Positions 1-62,344 of a DNA stretch of 64,000 nt are shown one piece after another. The stretch spans positions 1,100,866 to 1,164,865 of the forward strand of contig OY969767.1 in assembly GCA_963702895.1 (NCBI GenBank). Reading direction: 5' to 3'. The position numbers and the translations under genes are program-made. This stretch comes from an uncultured Elusimicrobia bacterium. Lineage in GTDB: Bacteria > Elusimicrobiota > Elusimicrobia > 2-01-FULL-59-12. The number at the start of each line of letters is the position of its first letter. Positions within the stretch are counted from its first letter, which is position 1. The notes under the pieces were generated by a model. It did not search any database. It was not told the origin of the DNA and saw nothing but the letters and a program-made list of their open reading frames with translations.

Positions 1-3000
1 GACACTCGCAAAGCGTTTACGGACTTGGTCGCTAAGCGTTTGAAACGTTCACTCACCGTGGAGACACTGGACTTGGCTCGCGAAATCGATTTTGGCCGGT
101 GGGACGGCCTCAGCGAAGAGGAAATTCTCAAGAAGTGGGGCCTGGACGAATTGGAGCGTGCGAAACGCTATCGTTACGAGGTTGACCCGACGGTTGTCTC
201 GGAGGGTGGAACGTCTTACCTGGATTTCTTGACCCACCAGGCAAGCGATCTGTTGACGTACATTAACGAGAAACACGCGGGCAAAACGGTGCTCCTCTTC
301 GCCCATGGAACATTGGGAAGCGCTCTGAGCGTATTGCTGTCATACCCCGAAGTGGTCACAAAAGAAGGTCACATTGACTGGCGGGCAATGAATATTCCAA
401 ACGCCGTGCCCTTTCAATTGCAGCGCTATTCGCGACCCGCCGCGGATTCGGCTACGCCCACCGCGGGCCAGCCCGCTAGCCCTGAGCGGTTCGGCAGGCT
501 CACCGCAAGCGAGCTCGCCCTGAGCGAAGTCGAAGGGAGTCGAAGGGCCGCCGCGCCGGATACGGCGGACACGGAGACAACAGAAACACCGACACGGGGA
601 CGCGGAGAAACACCCATTGAAGTTTCCCCGCGTCACCCCGTCGCCGCGTCTGCGCGTCCGACGTCCGATCCCGCCGCCGCGTCAACGGATCCTGACAGTA
701 TCGGATCCACAGACGCCAATAAGGATCATCGACATCACCCACCCATCGGCAATAACCCGCACGATGTCCCCGCCGCACAGTTCCCTGTTCGACCCGCTTG
801 GGTCTATGAGCCTTCGGTTCCACAGGAAATGAGGTCTGAATTGGAGGATATGCTCCTAAAAGGACCTCATCTGCGATCGGTTCTGGAACGCGCTGCAGAT
901 AAGACGCGGCACCCGGTCACAATTGCATTTCAAGCCTATATGAACATTGCGGCCAGAATGGGATATACCCCCGAAATGGGATATTCCATTATGTTTTCTC
1001 AGGAATGGTTGGACGATAATGAACCAAACGCATTGGGCGCTCTTGAACATGAAGTAGCACACATCGGGGTCTATGTCGACGGCATCGCTAACCTGGAGGA
1101 TGACCGAACTTTTCAGACGAGTATGAGAACCCGTCCTCGCAATGATTTCTCCCATTCCGTATTGCAAGCGCTCTCCGATTTTATTGCAGTTTGCTATCAG
1201 CTCGAGCTAAATTGGGTATCGGCCGCCAGTTATATCCTGGACGTGGTCGTCGCGCTGAATCAAAAGAGTCATGCTCGGTGGGTCAACATGGCGCCCGGGG
1301 AACAGACGCGACAGGCTGCTTTCCAATATGCACTGCACTATCTACGGAGTTTTATGGCTTTTGATCATGAGAACAGGGGCGTTGATCCTGCGACTCGCGA
1401 AACCTTTACATTGGCCTTCAAAGACATTTTAACAACCGAGGAAATGACAGTAATCCGTGAAGCGCTCAACGAATCACTGAGGGGCATTCCCCTCACCCAT
1501 TTGACTCATGCAGACTTTTTTGATGCGTTATGCAATAAACTCTACACGCTCGTAGGCTCACTTGCTAAACATTCTCGCGCTGCCGCGCCGGGCACAGCCG
1601 ACACGGAGACACGGGGACCCCCCGCCACTGAGGCATTGGCGGGTCCGCCAAGAAGTAGTGGCGGAGGAGACACGGGGAATCAAGGAGCAAGCGATGGCCC
1701 CTCCGCTTTTGACGTTTCCCCGCGTCCCCCCCTCCCCGCGTCCCCGCGTCCGACGCCCAAACCCGCCGCCGCGCCGCCGACAGTCGAACCGGCGAATGGG
1801 CGAGCCGGCGATCTGGCGAAAGACCCGCCAAATGGTTCGCCGACACACCCCGTCGCCAAGTCGCTGACTCGACCGTCCGATCCCGCGTCGGGTTCGACTT
1901 CGCTCACCACAGGCCCTGAGCGAGCGGGAGCGAGTCGAAGGGCTCCCGCGCTGGAAAGTGCTGATGTGAGAAATGGTTCAGAAGAATTGGACATTCTAAG
2001 CCCAACAATCGACGCTTTGGTCAATCAATTGTGGAAAAGCATTTCACTCAATGACGCTGTGGGAAGATCACAAGCGCGGCGAGAATTGGAAGCCCTTGGG
2101 TTTAGTGTTCAAATTGGATTTTCACGTGAAATGCATCCATATTCTGATCCACAACATATTGAAGCGCTTACGATTTATCAGACGTTAACGAAAATGGCGA
2201 CTCCTGAGCAGCTCCGCTCCATCCGAGACGTTCTTTCGCATGGGATGCAAAATATCGCCAAATGGGGAGGTGGCAGAGGATTTTTATTAATGCGGCTGAA
2301 TACCGAAGCAAGGGCCTTTCAAATTGTGATGGGAGATTCTGGATTGGGAATCACATATGGCGAGGGGCCTCTGAAAGGCAGCCACGCACCGATTCATGAG
2401 GCGGTAAAACTCGGACAATCGTTCGCTGCTGGAAGCGATGGGGGAAAAGGGCTGGCTTATATGGTGATCGATCTCGACGACGTCTCTGTCACTAGCATCA
2501 CCCCTGAAGACGGAGTTGCCCGCGGCCATTGGTGGAGAAAAGGATGGCAACGAGAACGCAGATTGAAGAGTAATCAAAACTTACCCTCACAGGGATTAAA
2601 GATTGTTGGCCAAAAACTTCTTGGCCCCGCCGCCGCGCCCGCCACTACACCGTTGGCGGGCAAGCCGGGCGCAGCCGACACGGGGATCGATTCACCGCGT
2701 CCCCGCGTCCCCCCTACTCCGCGTCATGATCTCTCCGCGTCACCGCGTCACCACGTCGCCGCGTCTGACTCTGTCACGGAGCCCGCCGCCGCGCCGGAAC
2801 GCTTGCCCTCCCAGTTGAAAGGGAAATGGGCGTGGTTGTCGAATGCCTGGGGGGAAGCGTTCCATTGGCTCCTGGCTCCGGCGTTTGGGTTTCAAGACGC
2901 CCGGATGGTCTGGCAGAAGGACCAGGCTCCTTACGTGCATGTCCCCGGCTTGCCGGCCCGCGGCGTCCGGGCGTTTCTAATGGCGGCCGTGCATCCGCTG

Positions 3001-6000
3001 ATCAATCTTTTCTGGACCCTTTTCCCCTGGCTCATTTGGGACCAGCTGGCGGGTCTTCCTCAAGGCCCTCCGGCCCAGATCCTGATCACCGCGCTGATTC
3101 TTCACGCCGTCCTCAACGCCTACGGTTTTCTGGGCAACCTGATCAGCTCCTACGTTTCCCTGGTCCCATTGACTTTCTATGAGTATGACCGCGCCTCCGA
3201 CCACCGCTTGATCGCCCGGCCCCGTTTCTCTATTTCCGTTCCGCGGTGGGAGGTTAAAGCCAACTCGGACTGGAACCGGATGGTTTACACGCTTTCGCTT
3301 GGGCGTCTTGGCCGCAAACCGGAGGGGGATGACCTTCATTCCGAACTGCCGCGGGGCGCCACCCCGGAAGACCGCGCCGCGTCGCCGCGTCGCCGCGTCC
3401 CCGCGTCTGCGCGTCCGCCGTCCTATCCTGCCTCGACACCTCTTTCGTTCAAGCAGAAACAAGCTTTCATTCTCGCTCACGAGGACCGTCTTGGGGACCT
3501 CAAAAACCCTCGCCATAAGCGCGTCTTGCGCAGATATTTCCTGGAAGGAAAGACGCAGGAGGTCTTGGCAGCCGAATTGGGTCAAGGCCAGAGCTCAGTG
3601 TCTTCATTAATAGCACGGGCTTTCCGAGCGCTTCTTGATTGGGTGTATCCCGATGAAGCGTCAGACCTCAAATTTGTGCGTGATCACGAAGACCGCCTTA
3701 GGGAACTCAACAACCCTCGCTATGAGAGCATTTTGCGCGGGTATTTCCTGGAAGGAAAGACTCACGAGGTCTTGGCAGCTGAATTGGGTATCTCCGTTCG
3801 CTCAGTCTCTGACTCAAAAAGAACAGCCATCCGAGTTTTTCGTGATAAGGTGAACCCTGATGAAGCGTCAGACCGCAAATTTGTGATCGACCACGAGGGC
3901 CTGCTTGGGCAGCTCGCTCCTTCCCAAGTGCGCGCATTGACCGGGTATTTCCTGGAAGGTAAGACCCTGCCAGAATTGGCGCACGCTTACGGCATCACAA
4001 AACAGGCGGTGGCCGAAGCAAAAGACCTCGGCTTGAGACAACTGCGAAGATGGGTTAAAACTCATGAGTCGCTTCTCCAGGCGCTCGTCGAGATGGATGG
4101 GTTGGTCACAGTCACGCGTATCAGCCGCCAGGTCGGGGTGACTGCGCTGAGGGTCAATTCTCATGGGGGTGTCACGGGACTGGTCGCTGAAGCGGCACCG
4201 CTGCGCGCGCTAGCGAGGCTGGAAGCGGGTCCCCTTTTCACAACGAGGCCGAAAAGAGACCTCAGTCTTCGGGACAAGGGAATGACGCGACACCGGCAGG
4301 CGACGGGATTGCCGCCGCCGGCGAAGGAACAAACCAAAGGGAATTCCTTCCAGGAATCTGTGAATGCCCGATTCAAATCGGGAACGAAGTCTGAATTGAC
4401 GGAATTCCTGGGAAGCTTAACGTCTGATCAACGGAATCGATTAACGGATGTTCAGCGCCGTTTGCTTCTTTTTGTCTGGCTTTTCATCGATGACCCTATG
4501 GGCGGAGACCATTACGGAAAAATTGGTGAAAAGCTAATTGATTTCCCGATGCAAACATGGATTCTCGGGGACCAATCCGAGCGCCAATCTGATCCGTGGA
4601 TTGCCATGACCGGGGTGGCAAAAACTCTGCAATCTTTCATCTATGAGCTAAGCTTTCACTGGCAGCGTGGGATCCCCTGGCGCCGAAAAACGATGATTGA
4701 TGCTTTACAAGGTCCCACCACGGACTTGCTGGGCGCCGATACATACCAACGATTGGCCGTCTTAGCGAGGGAGCGTCGCTATCCAAAGAAGGGAAATCGC
4801 AGCACCCGTTTGGCCGGGATAGACTCCGATGACAGGATTGTTGATAGCATCGGTGGCATGGACTGGGCCAGGGGTGAATGGTTCAGCAAATACATTGACA
4901 CGCCGTATTATGATGCTTATGCAGGTCTTATTCTCGCCCCTACCGCTGCGTCGAATGATCCGACAAAAATAAATCCAGCCCAGACCCCGCTAGCGCGCGC
5001 CCTCTGGTTGAAAATCGCCGGGAAAAGCGCGACCAACACCCGGGCGGAATCCTGGTTTACGGCGGTCCTCGAATGGCTTCCCTGGCTGGCGCTGGTGGGG
5101 GCAGCGGCGCTCCAAGCCCTGCATTCGCCGAGTGGTTATTCCTGGCTGCTGATCCCGGTCAGCGCTTCGATCGCGATGATCTTTTTATACGCCCTGCACG
5201 CGTGGGTCCCCCGGTGGGCCCCGCCAGGCGTTGAACGCGTAAAAGTCGGGCGCGAAACATGGCCCCTGGCGGCCGGCTTGTTTGCTGTGGACGTCTTGGC
5301 GGGCTTCTCGGTGGCTTGGGGCGTGGGGTTGGCGGCGGTGCCACTCGTTCTGCTGGGGTGGTTCCTTCACGCCAGGCACGACCGGCGAATCTTCAATCAA
5401 CGGACGACAGGCGACCGCGATTTTGGAAAAACGGGATTGAGATTCTTTGTCCTTGGCCTTGGAACGATCTGGCTTGGACGGCGGTGGCCGCCCGGTAACG
5501 CCAGCTATTCAGATCCTTCCGAAGAGGAAATCGATAAACATCTTGAAGAAGCGTTCGTCTCGATGGGGAACAAGGACGGTGTCGTCATGCTGGATACCGC
5601 GGCCGCCTACGGCCGATCGGAGGAGCGCCTCGGGCGCTTCTTGCTAAAACGTCCCGATCTGGCGCGACGCGCTTTTATCGCCACGAAGTGGGGTGAGGAG
5701 TTTGATCCAGTGACGAACCGATCGTGGAAGGATTTCTCGGTTCAAAATCTGAGGGCCTCTTTCAAGCGGAGCCAGGATCACCTTGGCAAAGTGGACCTGC
5801 TTTACATCCACATGTCCACGGACGCCTCCGCGGATGTCCTGCGCGACGAGGCTGTGCGGCAGGAGATGGAACGTATGAAAATCGATGGGGAGGTGCGGCT
5901 CATCGGCGCATCGATCTCCAATGAAGCGATCCTGGCCGAGGCTATAGAACAAGGCTCACTGAATGGCTTCGATGTGATCCAGATGCCGGCCCCTCTCTTT

Positions 6001-6306
6001 TTGAAGCGGCCCGCTTTGGCTTCGGCCTTACACCAACGTGGCTTCGCCGTTGTTCTTAATTCCCCTGTCCGCAAAGCGGACAATCAGAATCCCGAAAACG
6101 CAATCCGTGAATTGGCCAACCGGCCCGAGGTTTCCATGATTCTCACGGGGACCCGGATGCACCTGGGAGAAACGGTGAGCTACCTGGGCACACCTCCCAG
6201 CGCGCCCAAAGGAAGGCTTCCGCTTTGGCGGCAATGGAAAAACTGGCTGTTTGCGCCGGCGGATAAAAACGCTCGCTTCTCTCATCGGGTCCGGGCTGCC
6301 GCGTAA
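1..6306 (+). CDS. Giant multidomain protein, 5' end outside the window. Contains histidine-phosphatase-like, HExxH, GHKL/anti-sigma-kinase-like, 3x sigma-70 region-4-like HTH, TM segments and a C-terminal aldo/keto reductase.
   Basis: Frame 1 has no stop from base 1 to TAA 6304-6306, while all other frames are fragmented. Motifs seen: EIDFGRWDG and FAHGTLGS (His phosphatase), LEHEVAHIG, HGMQNIAKWGGGRG/MGDSGLGI/GGKGLAYM, YFLEGKT..LAAELG x3, and LGLGTIWLG/DTAAAYGRSEE/LLYIHMS (AKR). Confidence 0.6.
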   Translation, partial: DTRKAFTDLVAKRLKRSLTVETLDLAREIDFGRWDGLSEEEILKKWGLDELERAKRYRYEVDPTVVSEGGTSYLDFLTHQASDLLTYINEKHAGKTVLLFAHGTLGSALSVLLSYPEVVTKEGHIDWRAMNIPNAVPFQLQRYSRPAADSATPTAGQPASPERFGRLTASELALSEVEGSRRAAAPDTADTETTETPTRGRGETPIEVSPRHPVAASARPTSDPAAASTDPDSIGSTDANKDHRHHPPIGNNPHDVPAAQFPVRPAWVYEPSVPQEMRSELEDMLLKGPHLRSVLERAADKTRHPVTIAFQAYMNIAARMGYTPEMGYSIMFSQEWLDDNEPNALGALEHEVAHIGVYVDGIANLEDDRTFQTSMRTRPRNDFSHSVLQALSDFIAVCYQLELNWVSAASYILDVVVALNQKSHARWVNMAPGEQTRQAAFQYALHYLRSFMAFDHENRGVDPATRETFTLAFKDILTTEEMTVIREALNESLRGIPLTHLTHADFFDALCNKLYTLVGSLAKHSRAAAPGTADTETRGPPATEALAGPPRSSGGGDTGNQGASDGPSAFDVSPRPPLPASPRPTPKPAAAPPTVEPANGRAGDLAKDPPNGSPTHPVAKSLTRPSDPASGSTSLTTGPERAGASRRAPALESADVRNGSEELDILSPTIDALVNQLWKSISLNDAVGRSQARRELEALGFSVQIGFSREMHPYSDPQHIEALTIYQTLTKMATPEQLRSIRDVLSHGMQNIAKWGGGRGFLLMRLNTEARAFQIVMGDSGLGITYGEGPLKGSHAPIHEAVKLGQSFAAGSDGGKGLAYMVIDLDDVSVTSITPEDGVARGHWWRKGWQRERRLKSNQNLPSQGLKIVGQKLLGPAAAPATTPLAGKPGAADTGIDSPRPRVPPTPRHDLSASPRHHVAASDSVTEPAAAPERLPSQLKGKWAWLSNAWGEAFHWLLAPAFGFQDARMVWQKDQAPYVHVPGLPARGVRAFLMAAVHPLINLFWTLFPWLIWDQLAGLPQGPPAQILITALILHAVLNAYGFLGNLISSYVSLVPLTFYEYDRASDHRLIARPRFSISVPRWEVKANSDWNRMVYTLSLGRLGRKPEGDDLHSELPRGATPEDRAASPRRRVPASARPPSYPASTPLSFKQKQAFILAHEDRLGDLKNPRHKRVLRRYFLEGKTQEVLAAELGQGQSSVSSLIARAFRALLDWVYPDEASDLKFVRDHEDRLRELNNPRYESILRGYFLEGKTHEVLAAELGISVRSVSDSKRTAIRVFRDKVNPDEASDRKFVIDHEGLLGQLAPSQVRALTGYFLEGKTLPELAHAYGITKQAVAEAKDLGLRQLRRWVKTHESLLQALVEMDGLVTVTRISRQVGVTALRVNSHGGVTGLVAEAAPLRALARLEAGPLFTTRPKRDLSLRDKGMTRHRQATGLPPPAKEQTKGNSFQESVNARFKSGTKSELTEFLGSLTSDQRNRLTDVQRRLLLFVWLFIDDPMGGDHYGKIGEKLIDFPMQTWILGDQSERQSDPWIAMTGVAKTLQSFIYELSFHWQRGIPWRRKTMIDALQGPTTDLLGADTYQRLAVLARERRYPKKGNRSTRLAGIDSDDRIVDSIGGMDWARGEWFSKYIDTPYYDAYAGLILAPTAASNDPTKINPAQTPLARALWLKIAGKSATNTRAESWFTAVLEWLPWLALVGAAALQALHSPSGYSWLLIPVSASIAMIFLYALHAWVPRWAPPGVERVKVGRETWPLAAGLFAVDVLAGFSVAWGVGLAAVPLVLLGWFLHARHDRRIFNQRTTGDRDFGKTGLRFFVLGLGTIWLGRRWPPGNASYSDPSEEEIDKHLEEAFVSMGNKDGVVMLDTAAAYGRSEERLGRFLLKRPDLARRAFIATKWGEEFDPVTNRSWKDFSVQNLRASFKRSQDHLGKVDLLYIHMSTDASADVLRDEAVRQEMERMKIDGEVRLIGASISNEAILAEAIEQGSLNGFDVIQMPAPLFLKRPALASALHQRGFAVVLNSPVRKADNQNPENAIRELANRPEVSMILTGTRMHLGETVSYLGTPPSAPKGRLPLWRQWKNWLFAPADKNARFSHRVRAAA
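557..683. repeat. 8-nt-period inverted tandem-repeat hairpin element (GGRGACRC / CCGCGTCN class), in frame in the giant ORF
   Basis: Left arm is about 7 units (cggatacg gcggacac ggagacaa ... gggacgcg gagaaaca). Loop is cccattgaagttt. Right arm is about 7 units (ccccgcgt caccccgt cgccgcgt ctgcgcgt ...). Translates as TADTETTETPTRGRGE..SPRHPVAASARPTSDP. Confidence 0.7.
1048..1062 (+). other. HExxH motif (HEVAH) within the giant ORF
   Basis: cat gaa gta gca cac is in frame, in the context LGALEHEVAHIGVY. Zincin-like motif only; no further fold evidence. Confidence 0.4.
1598..1755. repeat. Composite 8-nt-period hairpin element (GACACGGR / CCCCGCGT class), in frame in the giant ORF
   Basis: ccgacacg gagacacg gggacccc and ggagacacggggaatc face tttccccgcgtcccccctccccgcgtccccgcgtccgacg. 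An inner inverted repeat ccgccact...agtggcgg is also present. Confidence 0.65.
1791..1864. repeat. 8-nt-period hairpin element (GGCGARNN / NNTCGCC class), in frame in the giant ORF
   Basis: ggcgaatg ggcgagcc ggcgatct ggcgaaag is followed by ...ggttcgcc gacacacc ccgtcgcc aagtcgc. Confidence 0.6.
2239..2470 (+). other. GHKL-type ATPase-like segment (SpoIIAB/RsbW-like) of the giant ORF
   Basis: N-box-like HGMQNIAKW, G1-like MGDSGLGI and G2-like GGKGLAYM occur in the expected order. Confidence 0.45.
2675..2768. repeat. 8-nt-period repeat element with a short left arm and a long CCGCGTCN right arm, in frame in the giant ORF
   Basis: ccgacacggggatc is followed by caccgcgt ccccgcgt ... ctccgcgt caccgcgt caccacgt cgccgcgt. 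Translates as SPRPRVPPTPRHDLSASPRHHVAAS. Confidence 0.65.
3375..3422. repeat. Six tandem 8-nt units (CGCCGCGT type), half-element, in frame in the giant ORF
   Basis: cgccgcgt x3, then ccccgcgt, ctgcgcgt, ccgccgtc. The 48 nt equal 16 codons (ASPRRRVPASARPPS). Confidence 0.75.
3466..4086 (+). repeat. Three tandem 207-nt coding repeats, each a sigma-70 region-4 / LuxR-like HTH module
   Basis: Units start at 3466, 3673 and 3880. Peptide pattern is F(I/V)xDHExxLxxLxxP..LRxYFLEGKTxxxLAxELGxSxxSV...PDEASDxK. DNA-level similarity includes tatttcctggaagg(a/t)aagac in all three. Confidence 0.8.
5430..6303 (+). other. Aldo/keto reductase domain at the C-terminus of the giant ORF
   Basis: GLRFFVLGLGTIWLG, MLDTAAAYGRSEERLGRFL, FIATKWG, DLLYIHMS and IGASISN are typical AKR landmarks. 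Confidence 0.75.
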
Positions 6307-6438: not shown

Positions 6439-6951
6439 CTATTCATGCTTGAAGCCTTTGATCCGTAATGGGGCATCCGCCGGCTTTGCCATCAGCCCAC
6501 GGATCGCGTCGAAGACCACTTTAAATTGCGCGTCGTATTTGTTTTCCAGCTCATGCAGCTTGCGGGCCAAGTCTTTGTGAGTGGCCAACATCTCTCTGAT
6601 CCTTACAAAGGCATCCACAACCGCGAGGCTTGCTTTCACGGCGGTCTCACTATTGAGAACGCAAGCCAGCATGATCGCGCCATGCTCCGTGAAAACAAGG
6701 GGCAAATAACGTCGCCCTCCGTGGGCCATTCTTGAGGTCGCATTTTGCGACCTCAAGCGGCGCGCTTCCCCTTCGGCAAGCTGGAACATATATCGAGGCG
6801 GGAACCGGATTCGATTTCGCTTCACCTGTTCATTCAAACGTTTGGTCGTTACTCCATAGAGTTCCGCCAGATCTTCGTCCAGCATCACTTTATATCCACG
6901 AATCAGATAAATATACTGCTCAATCTTGATGCTCGGTACAGGTTTATTCAT
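6439..6951 (-). CDS. ORF6N-domain (KilA-N-related) DNA-binding protein
   Basis: IEQYIYLIRGYKVMLDEDLAELYGVTTKRLNEQVKRNRIRFPPRYMFQL is a textbook ORF6N signature. ATG at 6951 is preceded by GGAGAGGAGG. Confidence 0.85.
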   Translation of the reverse strand: MNKPVPSIKIEQYIYLIRGYKVMLDEDLAELYGVTTKRLNEQVKRNRIRFPPRYMFQLAEGEARRLRSQNATSRMAHGGRRYLPLVFTEHGAIMLACVLNSETAVKASLAVVDAFVRIREMLATHKDLARKLHELENKYDAQFKVVFDAIRGLMAKPADAPLRIKGFKHE

Positions 6952-7116
6952 GGGCTCCTCCTCTCCCTTAGATGGAGAACACCCGAAAATATTCACTGCT
7001 TAGACAAAGAGTTCAGACCCATCCGAGAACCCATTGCGTTTCGCATTTCGCCTTTTACATTCTTCATTTTGACTTGAGACACACCAGCGGTCGCAAGAGA
7101 TGAAGCAGCTTCGTCA

Positions 7117-7414
7117 AAGATTAGGCAGGTTCCCCTGGAAAGATTAAGCAGGTTCACGGAAAGATTGAGACGGCTCCTCGAAGAACGAGACGGTTGGTCG
7201 GGAAAGAAAGAGACGGTTGGCAAAGAGAATGAGACGGCTCCTCGAAGATTAGGTAGGTGACCCCGGAAAGATTAGGCAGGTTGGCCGAAAGATTAGGTAA
7301 GTTCCTCGAAGATTAGGTAAGTTCCCCGCGAAAGATTAGGTAAGTCGACCGAAAGATTAGGTAAGCTGGCGGAAAGATTAGGTAAGTTGACCGAAAGATT
7401 AAGCAGGTCTGTCC
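7117..7414. repeat. Array B: about 14 contiguous 19-23-nt direct repeats, consensus AAGATTAGGTAAGTTsnCCG
   Basis: Units were read one by one. The left units are degenerate (aagattgagacggctcctcg, aagaacgagacggttgg...). The right units are near-perfect. The last unit supplies the final codons and stop of the 7399 ORF. Confidence 0.85.
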
Positions 7415-7749
7415 GCGCCGGACGGCACGGGTTGGTACAGCGTGGCGGGGTCACGGGGATCGCCGGAGCGCTTGATCAGGCCGCGGTCCATGAGGTTGCC
7501 CAGGATTCTTAAGGTGGCCGTGCGCGAAAGGTTTAGCAGCTTTTCCACATCCTCCCGGCGCAGGCCGGCGCTCTGGCGCGCGGCGTCCAGGATCATCTTC
7601 TCGTAGCGTTCCCGTTTGCGGCTGACCCAGCGGTTTTGGGTGGAGGGGGGCAGGGGGTGACGAAGGCGTCGGCGCCGCGGCCTGGCCTTCGCCCTCGAGC
7701 TGTTGTTTGAGCCCCCGTGCGCCTTTTCAAACAGGTCGAACAGATCAGG
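7399..7749 (-). pseudogene. 5'-truncated, frameshifted duplicate of the 3' end (wHTH domain) of gene 9680..10423
   Basis: 7442-7573 differs from 9723-9854 at 4 positions by eye. Upstream homology continues to about 7730 but reads RPRRRRLRHPLPPSTQ where the intact copy reads GESAAPPPSSPTPSTQ (frame change). No TM region or start is present. Confidence 0.7.
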
Positions 7750-7834
7750 TCAAGCAAATCCAGGTTCCAAACACGCTTCATCGCAAAGGATGTGGAAGGC
7801 GAGCGCAGGGTTCTGTTATACAATCATCGTCAAG

Positions 7835-16069: not shown

Positions 16070-16077
16070 CGTTCGCT

Positions 16078-16293
16078 TCAACGGGAGCGCCCGAGATACC
16101 ACGCCCAGAAAGAGCGAATGGAAAGAGGGAGATTGAGAACGGAAAAGTAGCGACGGATGGTCGGCAGCCCCAGCCCTCGGATGTCGCGATCTCCGCCGCG
16201 GACCAGGACACGAGCCACGTACCATCGACGAAATGCCTCGTCTGGCTTTGCGGGTACCGGATAATCCCAAACCAGGGCGGGATTGATTTTCAT
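16078..16293 (-). CDS. Small partner protein (71 aa) upstream of the AbiEii-like NTase, candidate antitoxin/adaptor
   Basis: Stop lies 8 nt before the NTase start. NPALVWDYP...VARVLVRGGDRD...FWAW resembles small proteins I recall next to DUF1814 genes; this is from memory, not verified. Confidence 0.45.
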   Translation of the reverse strand: MKINPALVWDYPVPAKPDEAFRRWYVARVLVRGGDRDIRGLGLPTIRRYFSVLNLPLSIRSFWAWYLGRSR

Positions 16294-16331
16294 GGATGCT
16301 CATAGTGTAAACCGTCGCAGGAACCGGGTCA

Positions 16332-16361: not shown

Positions 16362-16387
16362 GGAAGCCCGCTGAAGTCCATGGTGAT

Positions 16388-22164: not shown

Positions 22165-22177
22165 CTTCTCCACCAAA

Positions 22178-24507: not shown

Positions 24508-24530
24508 AAACAAACGGCGTACGGCGAAAA

Positions 24531-29326: not shown

Positions 29327-32300
29327 TTATTTCCGGAGGTAGATCAGCTTAAAAATGGCTTTTTCGCCCAGCGCGCGCGAAATGGCTTCCGTGTAAGCTT
29401 GAGCCTGCAGAGCGTAGGGGTCGGATTCGACGGCCGAACGACCGACGTTTTGGGTCGTTTTGTAGTCCCCCACCACGAGCTGCCCGGATGGGAGGCGGTA
29501 GAGGATATCGAGGGTGCCCCGCATCAGCTGACGTATCGGCGTATCGGCGTGCCGGCGTACCGGAGTAACGTCGTTACCCCGATACTCCGATACCCCGATA
29601 CTCCGATCCTGTTCACTATCATAGAAGAACGGCACCTCCCTCCCTAAAATCTCCGATCCTTTGATCTCCTCGTAGTCCTTCGATCGCATAAAGTCGGCCA
29701 AGAGGCGCTGGGCCTCCTCCACGACGGCGATGATTTCGGGAGGGTTGCTGGTTTTCCGGCCCAGCTTCAGCTCAGGAAAAGGTTCCAACAGGAGGCCTTC
29801 TTGAGCGAAAGAGGTGTTCGCGACTCGGCGTAAGGCCGTTGGCATCGTCTCTTTTTCAGCTTGAAAGTCCCAGGTTTCGAGGAATTGATGGACGAGCGTG
29901 CCCAGCCGTGCGGGATCGATACGGCGAAGCGGAGAATCGGCGAAGCGGCGAGTGGACCACTTCTCTGGCTCGCCGGCTCGCCGGCTCGCCGGCTCAGTCC
30001 ATTGTGTGGGGCTCATCACCCGTAACGTCTTCATCGCTTGTTCATAAGTTTCGGACTGCTCCTGCCACCGCGCGGCGAGTTCGACTGGCTTAATCGCGGC
30101 CAGCCAGGCTGGCTTCGTTGAGTCGGGCGCAGGCAAGGGCGCCTCCTTCGAAGTGATCGTGTGGGCCGTGAGGGTGCTTTCGCCCATACGGATGAGGCCA
30201 TCCCCCAGTTCATCCAGATTGAGTTTCCAGGCACTCGCAAGCTGGTTGAGGAAACTGTCTTTCGCAGGTCGCTTCAAGTGGATGCCTCCGGACAAAATGA
30301 GCCGCTCTTTGGCGCGGGTCATGGCCACATAGAGGATGCGCAAGTCTTCGGCCGCCTCCCGGACCTTGGCGTCTTCCTCCAGCGCCGCGCAGTCGAGGCT
30401 TTCCACATCCTTGTCCAGCGCGATGCCGAGGCGTCCCGTCGCCCAATCGTAATGCACGCGGAGATTATCCTTCCGCCTGTTTCCGCCCTTGCCTCGGTGC
30501 AGACCGGGGAGCCAGACCACAGGAAACTCCAATCCTTTTGCTTTATGCACGGTCAGGAGCCGCACGGCATCATAGGTTTCGTCTGCAAGAGGATACTCCC
30601 CTTCCAACCGGTCGTTTTCCATAAAGCGGTCGATCTTTCCTAACAGACCGCCCAACGTGGTTTCACCTTCCTCCGCAAAGGATTCCATCAGGCGCTTGAG
30701 CTTGAGCAGGTTCGCCATTGTCTGGTCTTGGTGATAGGAACGGGCCGCGAGTTCCATGAGATAGGTGTCTTCATAGACATGGTTCAAAATGGATTTCAGG
30801 GGCTCACGCTGGGCCCTTCTCTGCAAGTTGTTGATCAACTGGAACGTTTTTGCGGCGTGCTGGTCCTCCGGGGGCGCTCTCCATCCGGCCTCTTTGATCG
30901 CTGTGAGCTCAGGGTCTGTAAAGCCCCCCAGCGGCGATCGCAAGAATCCCGCTAAGGCCAGGTGATGGGAAGGGTCCTCGGTCACACGGAGGAGGTTGAG
31001 AACATCGGTCACCTCGGGTGTGCGATAGAAGTAGCGTTCGGCCTCGACCACAAAGGGAATATGGCGCCGGCGAAGCTCCTCGATAAAAGGCAGCATCGCG
31101 GTGGTGGCGCGGAAGATGAGCGCGATGTCCTTAAACCGAAGGCCGTCCGACGTGCGACGTCCGAGGTCCATATCACTTAGGTTTGTACGTGCCTCTTTGA
31201 CGTCGGACGTAGGACGTCGGACGCGGGAATCGATCCACGCCGCGGCGTCCGCCGCTTCTTGTTCGAGAGCTTCCTCGGAGGTTTGTGGTTCGCCGGAAAC
31301 GGCCAGTCGTAATTCCACATCCTGGTGCTCGCTCTCTTTGGCCCGCCGGGGGACGAGGGCTTGATAGGCGGGTGAGATCGGATGCTGTTCCTTCATGAGC
31401 GACGAGAACGTGGTGTTGATCGTGTGGATGATCTGGTCGTGGGAGCGATAACTGTCTTCAAGACTGAGGCGCTGGCCGCCTTGCGCGAGCACCATCTCCG
31501 TGATGCGCTGGTAGGCCGCAATGTCAGCGCCGCGAAAACGGTAGATCGATTGCTTCGGATCACCCACAAGGAAGAGTTTCCCGGGTTCGAGCTTCACTTG
31601 GTCCCAGCGTTTGGCCTGGGTGCCGAGCTGCTCCGAGAGAAAGACCAGGAGCTCGCCCTGAAGCGGGTCGGTGTCCTGGAATTCGTCGACGAAAATCTGC
31701 CGGATCTTGTTCTTTAAAGTCTCCCTGACATGCGCCTCACGCGCCACCAGCTCACGGGCAAGCACGAGGAGCGCGTCATTCGAAAGATGTCCCTCTGCCA
31801 AAATCTTGGCGCGGAAACGCGCGACAAATGGCTTAAGCAATTGGGTCAGGTCGCGAAGCTTGACGTTTTCTTCTGCGCCCTGAAGCGGCAGGCGATCCAA
31901 GGGCACATCAAATTCACACAGGCGCCGCGCGAGTTCTCTGATTTTCCCAAGGGAAACCGTCTGCAAGACGTTGAGCCAATCACTTGCTCGAGGCTCGAGG
32001 CGATGGGCTCCTGACGAATGTGGGGTGTGCTGGCCTGGGGCATGGAGCCTGGAGCTGTCTCGGATTCTGGGGCCTGTGCCCTGGAGTTCGTGCCTCAACC
32101 AGGCAGGCCATTCTTTTTCAAAGAGATCATCGGCCCGTACGCCCTTGTCATCGACTTCCGCGGCGGGACTGATGCCTGCGGCGATGGGAAAACGTTTCAA
32201 CAGGCTGAAGGCGTAAGAATGGATCGTTCCAATCGCGGCGCGGTCGATGGCCTCCAGCGCCTCGCGCGCGCGGGATTTCCGATCGTCCGAGGCATCGCGC

Positions 32301-37289: not shown

Positions 37290-40192
37290 GAGCGGGTGTG
37301 GTTCATCTCGAGAGAGAAGGCATCCTCATGCCTCTTCCGGAGGGGGCTCTTTCCATGGCGGATCTGGGTCGGTTTGTGCTCTTTGCGGCAGACATGGGCG
37401 AGCGTGCACCACGAGCAGTAGCCATACCCGTCGCTCGGACGGATGAAAAAGGAGCCTGACTCGATCTCTTGGACCAAAAAGCCTAATCTCTTGCGGAAGG
37501 GCTCGCCGTAGTCCTTCCAGAATTCCGGGCCAATCTCCAGCGGCATTTCGCTTTCTCCTAAACGATAGAACCGTGCTGAGCCGTTGCGAAAGGCCTTGTT
37601 CCCTTGTTTCTTCAACCATGCTTGGGCCAGGAGCACATAGAGAGGCAGTTGGAAGCTTTTGCCCTTCAAGATGGCTGTTTCGACCTTCACGTTTTTCCCA
37701 ATCCCGCCAGAGCCAGTTTTATAGTCTACAACCCGGAAAGCGTTCTCTTTCAGGTCTAAGCGATCAATCCGACCCTGGAGAAACAGCCCATCCACGACTT
37801 CAGCGAGGTTCAGCTCGAAATGGGTCGGCCGAAAGCCGCTTTCTTTCAGCTCGGCCCTATCTTGAGGTATAAAGCTGTGAAGTGTGCTTAGGATGGAGTT
37901 TTGCTCCGCCTGCCAAGCCAGAGGATAGAGCTCGGGATGCTCTTTGGCAAAGAGCTCCAACTCCTTTTCGGCCAATTGATCCATATTGACTTCGTCTGAT
38001 TTCGAATAGCTTTGATAGATAAGCTCAAGTAACTTATGAATGAGTTTTCCACGTCCTGCGAGGCTGAGCACTCCGTCTTCCACATCCCTTTGTTCGGTTT
38101 CGAGCCCCAGAACCTTCCGGCCATAGACCTTGAAGGGACACTCCGCCAAATCCTTTAAGGTGGCGGGGGATAAGCCCTTCGCCAGGAGCTTCCGGGAGAG
38201 CGGGTGGTCTTTCCCGATGAGCCCGTCATAGGCCCCCAGTGCCTTGAAGGATTCCATCTCGCGCTGCGACTGGAGGAGATGGTTCATCATGTCTCGGTCC
38301 CATCCTAAAGCCTCATAGAGGGTGTCGGTTTCACAGTCGTGCCTGTGGAAGGCGAGAGAAACCTCTTTCGGACGAAGCGTCCGGGCCGGGACCTGATGAA
38401 TCTTTTCCAGCCATGTCCGGCGCAAGGATTGGAGCGCCACTTGGTTCTGGCGCAGATAGTCATGGAGGTAAAGCGATAGGACCAGCGCCTTGCCTTCTTC
38501 GTCGGAACGCTGGCAGGAGAGGTGCAAATGGCTCCTGGCCGATTGGATGGCGAGCTCAAAGAGCAATTTTTCTTCCTGGTAGCCGTCCATCTTGCGGCCC
38601 AGCCGGCAGCCGAGCGCTTGTGCGAGGGTCGACCGGGCCGCGTCGGAGAGGAACGGATCTTCACGAATCAGACGCGGGAAGAGTTTCTCATTCAAGCCCA
38701 CAAGGAACACGGCTTCAAAGGAAAGCCCGCGCGCGCTCATGATGTCCATCACTTGAACGCCTGCGACATGGTCGGGGACAAGCGCCAGACGCAAGCCTTC
38801 GAGTTTTTCTTCCAGCACTTCGAGGAAGCGCGCGTAGGGCACTGGCTTCCCCAGCGCGTCGAGCTCGCTCAGGGATTCGACGGCCTCCAAGAGCCCTTCC
38901 CAAAGGCGGATTTCGACGTCCGTGGCGTCTTCTGGGAAATGAATCTTTGAGGAGAGAAGTTCCTTCGCCCGGCGGGTGTGCTCTGACCAGCTCGAAAGGA
39001 TTTCCCCCTCCCTTGTCTCAGCCAAAAGGACCTCCCTTGCCCGCTTGACGAGCGGCCAAGCTCCGACGGGTTCCTCTGCATGGAGGGCATAGGGAATTCG
39101 GTGGTTTTCGAGGATTTCACGCAGGGTGCTCAGGTAAGGGTCTAAAGAGCGGGCGATCACTGCCATGTCGTCATACGGAACCCCCTGCTGGGCGAGTTCA
39201 AGGATCTTTTTTGCGGTGAGCCAGATTTCATCGTGGGTCCCGGAGCAGCTCCAGGCTTCTGTGGTTCGACCCGGCGAACCGGCCCCATCCACCTGTGGAG
39301 TGCTCGATGGTTGGGGCCGTCCCGACGAAATAGATTCATAGGAGGACGGGACGGCGAGTGGGCGAACCGGCGCGGGAATCGATGGGTTGTTTCGCCGGCT
39401 CGCCGGGTCGCCGGCTCGCCGGCTCTGACTTTGAAAGGCTGGATCTTTCAGCAACAGCTCCGCATACCCGTAAGCGGGATGGCCTTCTTCGTAAGGAAAG
39501 TAGATCCTGGCATGGGGATGAGTCGAAAGCGCTCTGACCAGGTCGAGCTGCACGCCGGTGAGATCGTAGAAGCCATAGAGGTAAATCGCCTTCAGTTCTT
39601 GGATCCAGGGGGTCTCGGGGATGGCCGCGGCCGCTCGTCGGATCAAGTCCGCACTCGTTTGCAGGCGGTGGTCGTGGAGGACTTTATAGGTCAGGACATT
39701 GAGTTCCAAAATCGGCACCGCCCCTCCTGCTCCTTCACCGAGGTGACCTTCTCGGGCGACGTTGGCGCAATCGACGACGCGCGCGCCGGAATCCTGAAGG
39801 TCTTTGAGCGTTGCCGCAAGGGCCCCCGCCAGCCCTTTGGGAATCGGTGAGCCCGGATGCACCAGGGCGTCTTTGGAAAGGAAGGGCATCTGTGCCTCGC
39901 CCGAAAGGAAGTCATGCACGATTTCCCGGTAGAGCGTGGGCTCGGTGATCCTGTGCGTGTCCAAGGTGGACTCACTCACCCAAGCACGTTCCGCCAGCGC
40001 AAAAAAGGTCAGGAAATGGATGTTGAGGTACGCATGGCTTTGGGCGAGTCGTCGTTGTAAGCGGTTCAAGATCTGGCCCGAGGGCGATAGAACCAGGACC
40101 CCGCCCAAGGGGTCGGACTTCTTCTGAGCTGCCACATCGCTAAGAAAAGCGTTTTCGAGAGAGGAATAGGTGCCGGTCGTGAGGTGGAACAT
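37286..40192 (-). CDS. addB: AddB-type helicase-nuclease subunit (PD-(D/E)XK nuclease with an Fe-S Cys cluster)
   Basis: C-terminal GRIDRLD...VVDYKTGSG and CSWCTLAHVC. ATG at 40192, 11 nt after the upstream stop; the 140-codon extension overlapping the transporter gene was rejected. Confidence 0.75.
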   Translation of the reverse strand: MFHLTTGTYSSLENAFLSDVAAQKKSDPLGGVLVLSPSGQILNRLQRRLAQSHAYLNIHFLTFFALAERAWVSESTLDTHRITEPTLYREIVHDFLSGEAQMPFLSKDALVHPGSPIPKGLAGALAATLKDLQDSGARVVDCANVAREGHLGEGAGGAVPILELNVLTYKVLHDHRLQTSADLIRRAAAAIPETPWIQELKAIYLYGFYDLTGVQLDLVRALSTHPHARIYFPYEEGHPAYGYAELLLKDPAFQSQSRRAGDPASRRNNPSIPAPVRPLAVPSSYESISSGRPQPSSTPQVDGAGSPGRTTEAWSCSGTHDEIWLTAKKILELAQQGVPYDDMAVIARSLDPYLSTLREILENHRIPYALHAEEPVGAWPLVKRAREVLLAETREGEILSSWSEHTRRAKELLSSKIHFPEDATDVEIRLWEGLLEAVESLSELDALGKPVPYARFLEVLEEKLEGLRLALVPDHVAGVQVMDIMSARGLSFEAVFLVGLNEKLFPRLIREDPFLSDAARSTLAQALGCRLGRKMDGYQEEKLLFELAIQSARSHLHLSCQRSDEEGKALVLSLYLHDYLRQNQVALQSLRRTWLEKIHQVPARTLRPKEVSLAFHRHDCETDTLYEALGWDRDMMNHLLQSQREMESFKALGAYDGLIGKDHPLSRKLLAKGLSPATLKDLAECPFKVYGRKVLGLETEQRDVEDGVLSLAGRGKLIHKLLELIYQSYSKSDEVNMDQLAEKELELFAKEHPELYPLAWQAEQNSILSTLHSFIPQDRAELKESGFRPTHFELNLAEVVDGLFLQGRIDRLDLKENAFRVVDYKTGSGGIGKNVKVETAILKGKSFQLPLYVLLAQAWLKKQGNKAFRNGSARFYRLGESEMPLEIGPEFWKDYGEPFRKRLGFLVQEIESGSFFIRPSDGYGYCSWCTLAHVCRKEHKPTQIRHGKSPLRKRHEDAFSLEMNHTRS
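39353..39428. repeat. 8-nt-period hairpin element (GGCGARNN / GGCTCGCC class), in frame in addB
   Basis: ggcgagtg ggcgaacc ggcgcggg, loop aatcgatgggttgt, then ttcgcc ggctcgcc gggtcgcc ggctcgcc ggctctga. Peptide is SRRAGDPASRRNNPSIPAPVRPLA. Confidence 0.85.
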
Positions 40193-59442: not shown

Positions 59443-60522
59443 TTAACGGGTCGACCGGTTCCAGAGACGTTCGAACTCCCGTTTGAAGCGAGGCGCCTGG
59501 TCATCGAGTACCACGAAGTTCTCATCGTTTCTTTGGGTCGCATTAGACGTCCAGTTAAAGCTCCCCGTGAGGACGTATCGGTCATCAAGAATAAGGAATT
59601 TGTGGTGCAGGATGCCTCCTTTGCTGCCCCGCTGGATGCGTATGGGAATGCCGGCACTGCGCAAAAGATCGCTGACATCACGCTTTCCTGCGGCTTGCGT
59701 TTTGTCGTGGACGACGCGCACCTTCACGCCGCGGAGTTTCGCCTGGACCAGAGCCCTGGCGATCTTTTCATCGGTGAGGCCATAGATGGCGCCGTCAAGC
59801 GACTTTTCGGCTGAGGCAATCCAGGACGTCATGACTTGGTCGCAGTGCCCGAGCGGACTAAAACACGTGTCAAGGGTCCTGGCTGCCAGCGGCAGAGCCA
59901 CCAGGGTCAGCCCCGTGGCGAGAACCAGGCATGCGGCTCTCCTGGCTGTCCGCTTTTTCAACATCCAGAGGGCCAGGACGAGGTAAACCGCGGCCAGCGC
60001 TGCGTAGTTGGAGAGCATGAAGGTTTTGTTACCCCAGGAGGTGCCTTCATAAAACGGTGTCGGGAACGGCCAGAGGTAAGGCGTTGCAAAAAAACGGCTG
60101 GAGTGGGTCGGTATATCGCCCAGGATATGGAGGGCCCAGGCACCCAGCGGCATCAGTGACCGTAACGGAGTAACGGGGTAACGGGGTAACGGAGTCACGT
60201 CATTTTGTAATTGCTCTGACCCCGATACTCCGGTACTCCGATACTCCGATACGGCCCAAAGTACTGCAAAGACGGCGGCCCACACCACCAAGCTGTGCGT
60301 GACATCGTAGGCATGATACACGTACGCGGGGATCGTGCTGGGGTCCGGCGGGCCGTGGCGGCCCTTCGCCCAGCGCTCACCGATATCACCCAAATGGGTC
60401 AGAAAGAAGGGGCCGAAAGATAAGAGGTCCGGTGCCACACCTGCGAGGAACGCCTGCTTCCAGCGCTTCTGGCAGAGTCCGAAGGCGGCCCCACCCCACA
60501 GTCCATGAGCTAGCGTGTCCAT
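59443..60522 (-). CDS. Fusion of a YdjM/DUF457-like membrane hydrolase domain with a PLD-family (Nuc-like, HKD) domain
   Basis: N-terminus MDTLAHGLWGGAAFG plus multiple TM segments. C-terminus GGILHHKFLILDDRYVLTGSFNWTSNATQRNDEN (HxKx4D...N). Confidence 0.75.
   Translation of the reverse strand: MDTLAHGLWGGAAFGLCQKRWKQAFLAGVAPDLLSFGPFFLTHLGDIGERWAKGRHGPPDPSTIPAYVYHAYDVTHSLVVWAAVFAVLWAVSEYRSTGVSGSEQLQNDVTPLPRYPVTPLRSLMPLGAWALHILGDIPTHSSRFFATPYLWPFPTPFYEGTSWGNKTFMLSNYAALAAVYLVLALWMLKKRTARRAACLVLATGLTLVALPLAARTLDTCFSPLGHCDQVMTSWIASAEKSLDGAIYGLTDEKIARALVQAKLRGVKVRVVHDKTQAAGKRDVSDLLRSAGIPIRIQRGSKGGILHHKFLILDDRYVLTGSFNWTSNATQRNDENFVVLDDQAPRFKREFERLWNRSTR
60161..60252. repeat. 8-nt-period hairpin element (GTAACGG / CCGATAC class), in frame in the YdjM-PLD gene
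   Basis: cgtaacgg agtaacgg ggtaacgg ggtaacgg agtcacg, a 20-nt loop, then ccccgatac tccggtac tccgatac tccgatac. Peptide is SEYRSTGVSGSEQLQNDVTPLPRYPVTPLRS. Confidence 0.85.
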
Positions 60523-60528
60523 AGTGCC

Positions 60529-60612
60529 AGTATCGGAGTAACGGGGTATCGGGGTATCGGCGTAACAGCAGGTTGTGTGTAATAGAGCAACAGCGTAACA
60601 GCTGTATCGGAG
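60529..60612. repeat. Intergenic 8-nt tandem units (GTATCGG/GTAACGG/GTAACAG), same orientation
   Basis: gtatcgg agtaacgg ggtatcgg ggtatcgg cgtaacag ... cgtaacag ctgtatcgg. Begins 7 nt upstream of the YdjM-PLD start codon. Confidence 0.8.
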
Positions 60613-60723
60613 TCCTGGGGTGTCCGGGCATTGTAGTGATGGGGAAACGGTGTAACGATATTGGGCAAGGGCTCAGTCCGAAGAAAAATCTGGTTTCCAG
60701 AATTTATCTGGTTGTTGGTGTGA

Positions 60724-60756
60724 CCCCGGTACTCCGCTACTCCCATACACCGATAC
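60724..60756. repeat. Complementary 8-nt units (CCGNTAC), partner arm of 60529-60612 across a ~110-nt spacer
   Basis: ccccggtac tccgctac tcccatac accgatac. Ends 5 nt before the SEC-C gene stop. Confidence 0.7.
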
Positions 60757-60761
60757 TAGCT

Positions 60762-61224: not shown

Positions 61225-62223
61225 TTAAAGGTTGATTTTACGAATTTTGATGCCGGCCTCTATCAGCAGCTTTTGTGCGGGACCGGCAAGCGGATAGTCC
61301 TGATTATAGACGACCTCGATGACCCCTGCGTTGATGATCATTTTGGTGCACAAGAGACAGGGGCAAAAGGTGGTATAGAGCGTTGATCCTTTGATCGAAA
61401 TTCCATGATAGGCTGCCTGGACGATGGCGTTTTCTTCGCCATGGGAACAGTAACAATCTCCCAAGCCTTGTCCCGAGGGCCCCACGGCATTACAGCGAGG
61501 GCACCCGCCTTCAAAACAGTTCTTCGTATTGCGCGGTGTGCCGTTGTATCCGGTCGAGATGATTCGACCGTCTTTGACGATGAGCGCTGCGACCTTTCGT
61601 TTTAAACAGTTTCCGCGGCTGGCGACATGACGCGCGATATGCATGAAATAACGATCCCAGGACGGGCGCTTCACGTTCTTTAAGACCTGCTTGAGGCGCT
61701 CCGTGAGTGCCTTCTCAAGCTGCCTTAGGGTGCCATTGTTCGTGATCATGGTGTCCGCCAGGCGTTCGCAGGCGTCGAGGGACTGTTTGTGGGGGTCCGT
61801 GTTACTCGCTTCTCGTTTTTCGACCGCCATAAATTCTTTCAGGGTGCGGGGGTCTTGTTCCCGGGCTCTGACTTTGATTCGTTTGAGGCGCAGGTCCGGC
61901 TTGGCGGTGATGGCCCAAAGCGCAAAGTCCGGGCGCTTACGGAAGGCTTCCACTTCCGCGGGATTGCGGAAAGAGTCAACGACATAATTCTGGCTCTCTA
62001 CGAGCTTCTCCAGAATACGTTCGGCCAAAAGAGAAGGACCGTATTGTTCACGCAGTTCATTGCCGACCCGCGTCAGGTGAGCTCGTGTGGGGGTCAGGTG
62101 CTTGCGCTTGAGCTCGTCCCGCAAGACATCCGAAAGAGAGTGATAGTGAAAACCGCGCGATTGCAGGAAGCGGGCGACTTCCCCCTTTCCAGATGCGTTC
62201 TTTCCTGTCAAACCAATGATCAT
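61225..62223 (-). CDS. Fusion of a P-loop nucleotide-kinase-like domain and a dCMP/cytidylate deaminase domain
   Basis: MIIGLTGKNASGKGEVARFL (Walker A-like). Deaminase HGEENAI and FCPCLLC zinc motifs, plus CFEGGCPRC. ATG at 62223; the upstream extension runs through a repeat element. Confidence 0.8.
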   Translation of the reverse strand: MIIGLTGKNASGKGEVARFLQSRGFHYHSLSDVLRDELKRKHLTPTRAHLTRVGNELREQYGPSLLAERILEKLVESQNYVVDSFRNPAEVEAFRKRPDFALWAITAKPDLRLKRIKVRAREQDPRTLKEFMAVEKREASNTDPHKQSLDACERLADTMITNNGTLRQLEKALTERLKQVLKNVKRPSWDRYFMHIARHVASRGNCLKRKVAALIVKDGRIISTGYNGTPRNTKNCFEGGCPRCNAVGPSGQGLGDCYCSHGEENAIVQAAYHGISIKGSTLYTTFCPCLLCTKMIINAGVIEVVYNQDYPLAGPAQKLLIEAGIKIRKINL

Positions 62224-62233
62224 ATGAGGTTGA

Positions 62234-62323
62234 GCCGGCGAGTCGGCGAGTCGGCGAGTCGGCGCAAGAACGATCCAAGCGGTCTCCCACATTCCGCCGG
62301 TTCGCCGGTTCGCCAGTTCACCG
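62234..62323. repeat. 8-nt-period hairpin element (GTCGGCGA / TCGCCGGT class) in the leader between pheT and the kinase-deaminase gene
   Basis: gccggcga gtcggcga gtcggcga gtcggcg, a 29-nt loop, then ccgccggt tcgccggt tcgccagt tcaccg. Confidence 0.85.
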
Positions 62324-62344
62324 TTTCCCTTTGTCTTCGGAACG

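Follow-up and report, generated by a model that had tools for sequence, protein, structure and literature searches.

The STRR heptamers of cyanobacteria were reportedly described by Mazel and colleagues in 1990, and the foldback (FB) transposons of Drosophila, which are eukaryotic, kilobase-sized and transposase-linked, carry long inverted arms made of short tandem repeats. The heptamers GGGNATC and GGGGA(C/T)T of Xanthomonas and Nostoc frequently form convergent pairs; the kind of pair is kept between species while the lengths vary, and 7-11% of the copies are intragenic (Rehm et al. 2015, PMC4692102). Geobacter metallireducens has paired tandem octanucleotide sites with variable spacing, found "even within genes", of a class 1 (GTTGCTYN) and a class 2 (TCTCCGTS[Y]), which have been read as sites for regulators of the IHF/HU type and some of which lie at a constant spacing from the IS110-family elements ISGme8/9 (Aklujkar et al. 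2009, PMC2700814). Genes, above all those for repair, may contain REPs and RPEs in frame (Di Nocera et al. 2013, PMC3733652). Here we consider a set of elements made of 8-nt units, E1 to E4, in a giant open reading frame (ORF) that lies at the start of a 64,000-nucleotide stretch (the window) of an uncultured Elusimicrobia bacterium (GenBank assembly GCA_963702895.1, contig OY969767.1, positions 1,100,866 to 1,164,865).

The linker elements of this ORF are dispersed small foldback repeats, with the layout 5'-(G-rich unit)n, variable loop, (complementary C-rich unit)n-3' and units of 7-8 nt. Their behaviour would appear to be that of selfish or neutral DNA, of the type of REPs, STRRs or MITEs (miniature inverted-repeat transposable elements). 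In the explanation that we favour, with moderate confidence, foldbacks of a kind found across the genome came to occupy the linkers, which would be the sole tolerant sites of this ORF, spread from one to another and are now passive spacers.

Octamer elements in a giant mosaic ORF

Frame 1 of the + strand is free of stops across 1-6306 of the window, which makes up the C-terminal 2,101 codons of a mosaic protein, P0001, with a full size of 2,616 amino acids. Pfam places a His_Phos_1 domain at the start of this part, three Sigma70_r4 copies in its middle and an aldo/keto reductase (Aldo_ket_red) near its end. Between His_Phos_1 and the Sigma70_r4 copies lie, in order, module A, an orphan with an HEVAH motif; module B (P0001 residues ~1157-1386), which resembles an anti-sigma Ser/Thr kinase; and module C (residues ~1449-1632), a membrane module. 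Modules B and C are defined by HMMER homologs. The Sigma70_r4 copies are followed by an unknown region and a membrane segment before the reductase.

The original prediction had placed five stretches of 8-nt units between the domains of this ORF, and both the period and the position hold. Tandem Repeats Finder reports period 8 at 628-658, 1600-1618, 1717-1751, 1785-1820, 2692-2765 and 3375-3420, with unit-to-unit matches of 63-85%, that is, with tracts that are not near-perfect. At a lag of 8 nt, the five stretches have a self-identity of 0.45-0.80, compared with 0.23 for the modules that separate them. A scan with 32-nt windows and at least 70% lag-8 identity, controlled by 20 local shuffles, found 17 such regions in the 64 kb, 0-1 in the shuffles, and none at lags of 5, 6, 9, 10 or 11. 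The CCGCGTC heptamer is similarly concentrated, with 17 of the 21 copies in the window falling within 557-3422, all on the + strand. Stretches E1-E4 have about 70% G+C and the modules 43-54%, and G+C-rich stretches encoding Pro, Ala and Arg can mimic repeats; nevertheless, the lag-8 signal is missing at neighbouring lags and in shuffles, and isolate genomes from several phyla contain these units too (see below). The periodicity and the cross-genome data together refute the idea that the elements are chance low-complexity sequence or a compositional or assembly artefact, which is almost certainly wrong.

All five stretches are translated in frame 1, as the peptides originally quoted, and are located at the borders of homology-defined modules. 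In an E1-type element the left arm is (GACRCGGN)n and the right arm its complement, (NCCGCGTC)n. Because three units equal eight codons and all + frames of a C-type array are free of stop codons, in-frame copies read as low-complexity peptide, composed of Pro/Arg/Ser/Ala for the C arm and Asp/Thr/Gly/Arg/Glu for the G arm. The elements of the giant ORF contain no stops in frames 1 and 2. Out-of-frame stops follow them within ~3-250 nt, except for E3 in frame 3, which stays open for 380 nt past the end of the element.

Opposed arms around a short loop, predicted for most of the elements, are present in E1 (585-665) and in E2b but not in the remainder: the arms of E2 lie ~95 nt apart, with a further small hairpin in the gap (1621-1665), and E3 and E4 lack the arrangement. 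DNA folding gave z = -2.8 for the whole of E1 and z = -4.0 for its core at 585-665, while the two halves of E2, folded separately, were both non-significant, and E3 (in which the left arm is very short) and E4 had no significant fold relative to shuffles. Rfam and tRNA scans of the window gave no matches.

The first three elements have more in common than their octamers. E1, E2 and E3 share stretches of 23-65 nt beyond the arrays (23 nt at the left end, 65 nt at the right end), each is flanked on both sides by a 9-12-nt direct repeat, GCCGCCGCG(CCG), and in repeat family D2 the copy of E2 matches that of E1 at 86%. The cassette is translated as AAAP, GTADTET..., loop, ...SPRxPVAAS...P, AAA. 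The E1 linker peptide had no match in any other protein among 5.8 billion, a null result that would argue against in-frame E1-type cassettes elsewhere and is blind to other frames and to intergenic copies. The common stretches of E1-E3, along with the unmatched E1 peptide, point to one cassette having been copied within the gene.

A second short motif, reported originally at 481-556 and 1913-1950, is indeed found at both places: CCTGAGCG occurs at 481, 519 and 1915, and GTCGAAGGG at 529, 539 and 1934, the latter being three of its four copies in the window. The motif CCTGAGC(N)GTCGAAGGG adjoins octamer arrays in unrelated genomes (at 60-95 of locus L075 and twice at 4490-4590 of locus L117), is translated as LSEVEG or, from the other strand, PFDKLR, and, to judge by these sequences, looks like a second widespread REP-like seed.

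Immediately after E1, a peptide of the form TDANKDHR(R/H)HP..G.NP.DVP (window 709-771, P0001 residues 752-772) constitutes a conserved linker. Peptides of this type are found twice at module borders of P0009, a 1,147-residue relative with a HAD domain (residues 320-351 and 595-620), and may be a processing or docking motif.

Table 1. Positions of the giant ORF, the repeat elements and the second motif in the window
Feature	Position	Strand	Description or basis
Mosaic ORF (part of P0001)	1..6306	+	No in-frame stop; Pfam; homologs for modules B and C
Second motif	481..556	+	CCTGAGCG (481, 519) and 2 x AGTCGAAGGG (528-547); abuts E1
E1 foldback	547..690	.	Left (GACRCGGN)n, loop AAACACCCATTGAAGTTT, right (NCCGCGTC)n; GCCGCCGCG (AAA codons) on both sides
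E2, E1-type cassette	1579..1780	.	Left arm 1598-1620, right arm 1712-1756; bracketed by GCYGCCGCGCCG
E2b, second unit family	1781..1900	.	(NNGGCGAN)4, loop, (TCGCCNNN)n; fold z = -2.8
Second-motif palindrome	1890..1950	.	TTCGACTTCGCTCA ... CCCTGAGCGAGCGGGAGCGAGTCGAAGGGC; small palindrome, 1893-1950
E3	2628..2800	.	AAAP bracket, then a small hairpin (2638-2660), a short left arm (GACACGGGGA) and ~9 right-arm units (NCCGCGTC); 9.2 copies of period 8 (Tandem Repeats Finder)
E4, right arm only	3364..3440	+	5-6 CCGCGTC units, 84% matches; begins in codons ...EDRAAS right after module C
Family-3 foldback, AddA nuclease-domain loop	29526..29614	.	In frame, adds ~30 amino acids; homolog comparison
Family-2 foldback, AddA linker before nuclease domain	29912..30003	.	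In frame; arm scan, ORF reading
Heptamer foldback GTCCGAC/GTCGGAC in AddA	31136..31233	.	In frame; periodicity scan
Family-2 foldback, variable loop of AddB	39340..39432	.	In frame; fold z = -3.7
Family-3 foldback inside YdjM membrane domain of YdjM/PLD ORF	60147..60261	.	In frame; fold z = -4.1
Family-3 arms ~150 nt apart, upstream of likely YdjM/PLD start (60522)	60524..60758	.	Probably intergenic
Family-2 foldback between pheT end (62345) and next co-directional gene	62223..62332	.	Likely start of next gene ~62223

Foldbacks elsewhere in the window, in relatives and in other phyla

About six further foldbacks with 8-nt arms are present in the window: two in AddA, one in AddB, one in the YdjM/PLD gene and two in intergenic positions, of which the one at 62223-62332 is placed there on the strength of an inferred start, MIIGLTGKN, for the next gene. 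Their units are those of family 2, which is the E2b unit, and family 3, (TCGGNGTA)n/(TACNCCGA)n. The G-rich arm comes first in every arm pair of the window. About 10 of the 12 listed window elements, and about 9 of the 11 with 8-nt arms, are internal to ORFs and translated, and for several of those inside genes the predicted fold is much stronger than that of shuffled sequence (z = -3.7 to -5.5). In the predicted stems (for example 60145-60262 and 29520-29622), seven positions of each 8-nt unit pair and the variable position is unpaired, giving regularly interrupted stems rather than perfect palindromes. A short heptamer array, (GAGCAAT)n, was also seen inside the LptE ORF (46352-46388).

Comparison with relatives at the same sites was possible for the AddA and AddB copies. 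The named AddA homologs are nearly all from Elusimicrobiota, which, along with the origin of the relatives of modules B and C (see below), assigns the window to this phylum. The closest contig available (L121) has an AddA that is 62-67% identical and a gene order that is partly common. The closest AddA relatives (P0018-P0020, including that of L121) lack the element in the nuclease loop (29526-29614), and P0021, P0022 and P0024 have different repeat-like inserts in this loop. In AddB, a family-1 foldback of L121 begins after the same codon as the family-2 foldback of the window. At the AddA linker site (29912-30003) L121 carries yet another octamer family, and L122 and L123, which are more distantly related, carry heptamer foldbacks with the same borders at this linker site (e1). 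The units there are GGTA/TACC in L122 and GGTC/GACC in L123, a difference that is compensated in both arms over several units. L122 also has an array resembling the AddA heptamer foldback of the window (31136-31233), at what is apparently the corresponding place. These same-site comparisons show that foldbacks persist or recur at fixed tolerant sites, where the units turn over and the arms remain complementary. The inserts were placed by means of close homologs; we had considered using the solved Bacillus subtilis AddA for this purpose, and the alignment of the nuclease domain proved too weak.

Arms that stay complementary through unit changes at site e1 are what might be expected of a selected nucleic-acid function, in which the hairpins would pause ribosomes between modules, protect the message or act as truncating slippage switches. 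The strong folds of several in-gene foldbacks are consistent with this, and a switch would be served by a unit length that is not a multiple of three and by the nearby out-of-frame stops (with the exception of E3 in frame 3). However, E3 and E4 lack a significant fold, the imperfection of the arrays should make slippage slow, and conversion between inverted repeats explains the co-variation of the arms equally well. We consider a selected function of this kind to be unlikely.

Repeats of the E1 class are not confined to Elusimicrobiota. A scan for three consecutive CCGCGTCN units in one genome per bacterial species found no fewer than 120 loci whose arrays have at least three units and, among the matches listed, the hosts include Nostocales and other cyanobacteria, Acidobacteriota, Chloroflexi, Planctomycetota, Streptomyces and Nocardia. 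For array pairs no more than 700 nt apart, again among the matches listed, the G-arm precedes the C-arm in 31 cases and follows it in one. As a matter of speculation, this fixed polarity could reflect Chi-like arrays facing a breakable loop, or 3' addition, in the manner of telomeres, to the two ends of a break. The loops vary from ~0 to 600 nt, the arms are unequal (2-9 tandem units), and many arrays are single. In-frame copies in ordinary enzymes read ...DAGTRGRGD... or ...SASPRPRVPASP...; they fall within the envelopes that Pfam assigns to AMP-binding, PPDK_N and CHAT domains, between PGM_PMM I and II, and also in a histidine kinase and a UvrA-like ORF. At cyanobacterial loci the octamer arrays run straight into (GGGGACT)n arrays, which we take to be the classical STRR heptamer. 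Literature searches with the DNA strings and with the encoded peptides produced no match.

The window contains a single transposase, of the IS110 family (24795-25817), with no octamer array beside it; a link to this gene, which ISGme8 in Geobacter had led us to consider, was dropped for that reason. Hairpins of the GGGAGAGGG / CCCTCACCC type are found on its flanks, and an AT-rich foldback, AATAGAGAATAGACAATAG with CTCTATTCTCTATTGTCTA, directly follows an NlpC/P60 gene; together these features cover 24514-24570, 24590-24690 and 25840-25870.

Several neighbouring genes also deserve mention. ORF6N and Fic/DOC genes adjoin the giant ORF and a gene for an AbiEii-type nucleotidyltransferase toxin adjoins uvrC (the window regions 6439-8482 and 15404-16381 cover all of these); they are probably toxin-antitoxin or defence genes. 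Near the syntenic AddAB block, L121 encodes a mosaic protein of at least 944 amino acids with an aminotransferase domain (21405-23138), and the neighbourhood of P0026 has a giant mosaic ORF of 3,002 amino acids with matches to Beta_elim_lyase and Guanylate_kin.

Origin of the junction elements

To ask whether the modules of the giant ORF are joined in the same way elsewhere, we can consider their relatives. A HMMER search of 1.84 billion representative proteins with residues 751-1645 of P0001 found only 11 distant, partial relatives, encoded in metagenome-assembled genomes of Elusimicrobia and Omnitrophota, and no ortholog of the whole fused ORF other than P0001 itself was found in an index of 5.8 billion proteins, in GTDB species genomes or in JGI metagenome contigs. 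Modules B and C do occur in other mosaic proteins, of 0.7-5 thousand amino acids, with different neighbours, and none of these relatives contains a hexapeptide that could be encoded by a CCGCGTCN array. As modules B and C are fused elsewhere without repeat peptides, mosaic architecture is a trait of the family for which the repeats are not needed, and as relatives fuse the same two modules without such peptides, the elements have most likely colonised tolerant linkers. The original suggestion of a gene-joining device peculiar to this ORF is, in that form, not supported; what stands is that the elements occupy module borders, and what falls is their restriction to the ORF, given that elements of the same kind, the GGCGAGCC/GGTTCGCC class among them, are found in AddA, AddB, the YdjM/PLD gene and spacers as well.

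We envisage the following course of events. Foldbacks would arise or insert anywhere, and their arms would lengthen and shorten by slippage, with complementarity being maintained either by conversion between the arms or by selection on the hairpin. A copy within a gene would survive only if it preserved the frame and lay in a tolerant loop or linker. One cassette may have colonised the Ala/Pro-rich inter-module linkers of the giant ORF and then been copied from junction to junction. The elements would then be passive spacers, and the modular architecture would not have been caused by them.

Several observations weigh against this explanation. We found no mobilising enzyme and no consistent target-site duplication (there was nothing convincing around the AddA, AddB and YdjM copies), and mobility is something that we infer. 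The loops are not conserved between copies. Family 1 is found only in the giant ORF within the window, which amounts to 64 kb of a 2.72-Mb genome, and the same-site elements of the relatives could have been inserted several times independently and not inherited. In the giant ORF, furthermore, all copies are at module borders and none is inside a module, as would also be predicted if the elements had taken part in gene fusion, and its junctions have R-AAA tails that look like a former C-terminus.

These tails are among the reasons for taking fusion seriously. In this alternative, separate co-directional genes or terminal modules would have ended in ...R-AAA-stop with a foldback in the intergenic space, and loss of the stop would have allowed read-through; in variants of the idea, slippage by one 8-nt unit brings a downstream ORF into frame, or foldbacks of different genes recombine. 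The sequence is RAAA-P at the junctions before E1 and E2, PAAA-P before E3 and, more weakly, RAA-S before E4, while P0001 itself ends in RVRAAA-stop. At the level of DNA, GCTGCCGCG is followed by CCG at 1579, the junction after module A, and by TAA at 6295, the true end. The relatives P0012 and P0002 stop (at KAA and SAA, respectively) not far beyond module C, at the place where P0001 runs on into E4. Neither frame 1 nor frame 2 of the elements contains a stop, and a foldback apparently separates two co-directional genes at 62223-62332. Since one unit more or less moves the frame by one, a foldback between genes could in principle join two ORFs. On the other hand, AAA is found on both sides of E1-E3, for which a duplicated target or a copied cassette is a better fit than a single old C-terminus. 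No module following a junction begins with the signal-like N-terminal sequence of the mosaic family, P0003 and P0004 join module C to a methyltransferase with neither an AA tail nor a repeat, and the same elements sit inside single-domain genes in which no fusion is involved. We therefore regard fusion as a doubtful explanation, though one with a real chance of being correct.

The arrays might instead act as frame-tuning adaptors, with slippage reversibly joining and cutting off downstream modules and with the AAAP-foldback-AAA cassette also shuffling modules between genes that end in ...AAA-stop. We think this improbable; if it were true, frame-tuning adaptors would provide built-in gene fusion, gene fission and domain shuffling in the giant genes of Elusimicrobiota and Omnitrophota.

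The family to which P0001 belongs, giant mosaic proteins of Elusimicrobiota and Omnitrophota with P0002, P0005, P0009 and P0012 as relatives, has further features of its own. Its members have a common, signal-like N-terminus (for example MPKWIVRIVALLLVPCLAGD and VPKVLARYVALFLVPCLLADP), at which several of the relatives match P0001, and C-termini in SAA, KAA or AAA, with unrelated enzyme and regulator modules in between. Among the long ORFs of the window, P0001 alone has a C-terminal AA, an ending that recalls, at least by analogy, a degradation or sorting tag.

Short-period foldbacks, so far described mainly as intergenic oddities of cyanobacteria, Xanthomonas and Geobacter, are thus now seen in a number of further phyla, and they are routinely translated inside genes in the clade of Elusimicrobiota to which the window belongs. 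For annotation, this means that "disordered linkers" rich in Pro/Arg/Ser or Asp/Thr/Gly/Arg and having an eight-residue beat are a signature at the level of DNA and not a protein motif. Arms that change together at shared sites offer a clean system in which to ask whether hairpins in coding sequence are selected or self-correcting, and the junctions of the giant ORF, with what seem to be old C-terminal tails, are a lead on the part played by stop-free repeats in gene fusion.

Comparison with described repeat systems

Classical simple sequence repeats and transposons offer partial parallels. Like a phase-variable simple sequence repeat, the elements have a unit that is not a multiple of three (8 nt) inside an ORF, but their tracts are imperfect (63-85% matches). 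Like MITEs, they have inverted terminal arms, though E4 and many other arrays are single; unlike MITEs, they vary in size and loop and have no cognate transposase in the window, the sole transposase being the IS110-family one that adjoins no array. The FB transposons, with unequal, variable arms and a variable or absent middle, are a structural analogy only, as there is nothing kilobase-sized or transposase-linked here.

The resemblance to the STRR and GGGNATC heptamers is closer. Both have head-to-tail units of 7-8 nt, many dispersed copies and convergent pairs, and in both the pair type is kept in related genomes despite varying lengths, with a minority of copies in genes. The differences are that the units here are of 8 nt, that several unit families coexist in one genome and that the G-tracts are, by inspection, irregular. 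GGGNATC-type heptamers are also mostly intergenic and under-represented in ORFs, whereas the elements of the window are mostly in ORFs. Four or more regular G-tracts, with quadruplex potential and a preference for four units, also belong to the description of the heptamers. Formation of G-quadruplexes was considered as a unifying property and appears unlikely by inspection, as many units have no G-tracts: the complement of the E2 right arm has four G4 tracts, and E4 and the units of families 2 and 3 do not.

The octanucleotide sites of Geobacter likewise consist of 3-4 tandem 8-nt units per strand, paired at a variable distance, and their class-2 unit resembles the GACACGGAGA units of E1, a likeness that is drawn from the published consensus and not from a sequence alignment. 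With the REPs and RPEs, the elements have in common that they are small in-frame palindromes that add 20-30 amino acids, apparently without inactivating the genes, and that repair genes are among their hosts (uvrA and uvrB there; AddA, AddB and the UvrA-like ORF here). The REPs and RPEs have a fixed consensus, a stem of 8-13 bp, a loop of 2-20 nt and a GTAG or CGTC tag; the elements described here have variable unit numbers, variable loops and no tag. Membership in the CGTC-tagged REPs, suggested by the CGTC within the octamer unit, is ruled out by this architecture of stem, loop and tag. Thus, while they do not have the fixed consensus of REPs and RPEs, the elements share the behaviour of these repeats, of the GGGNATC heptamers and of the Geobacter octanucleotides.

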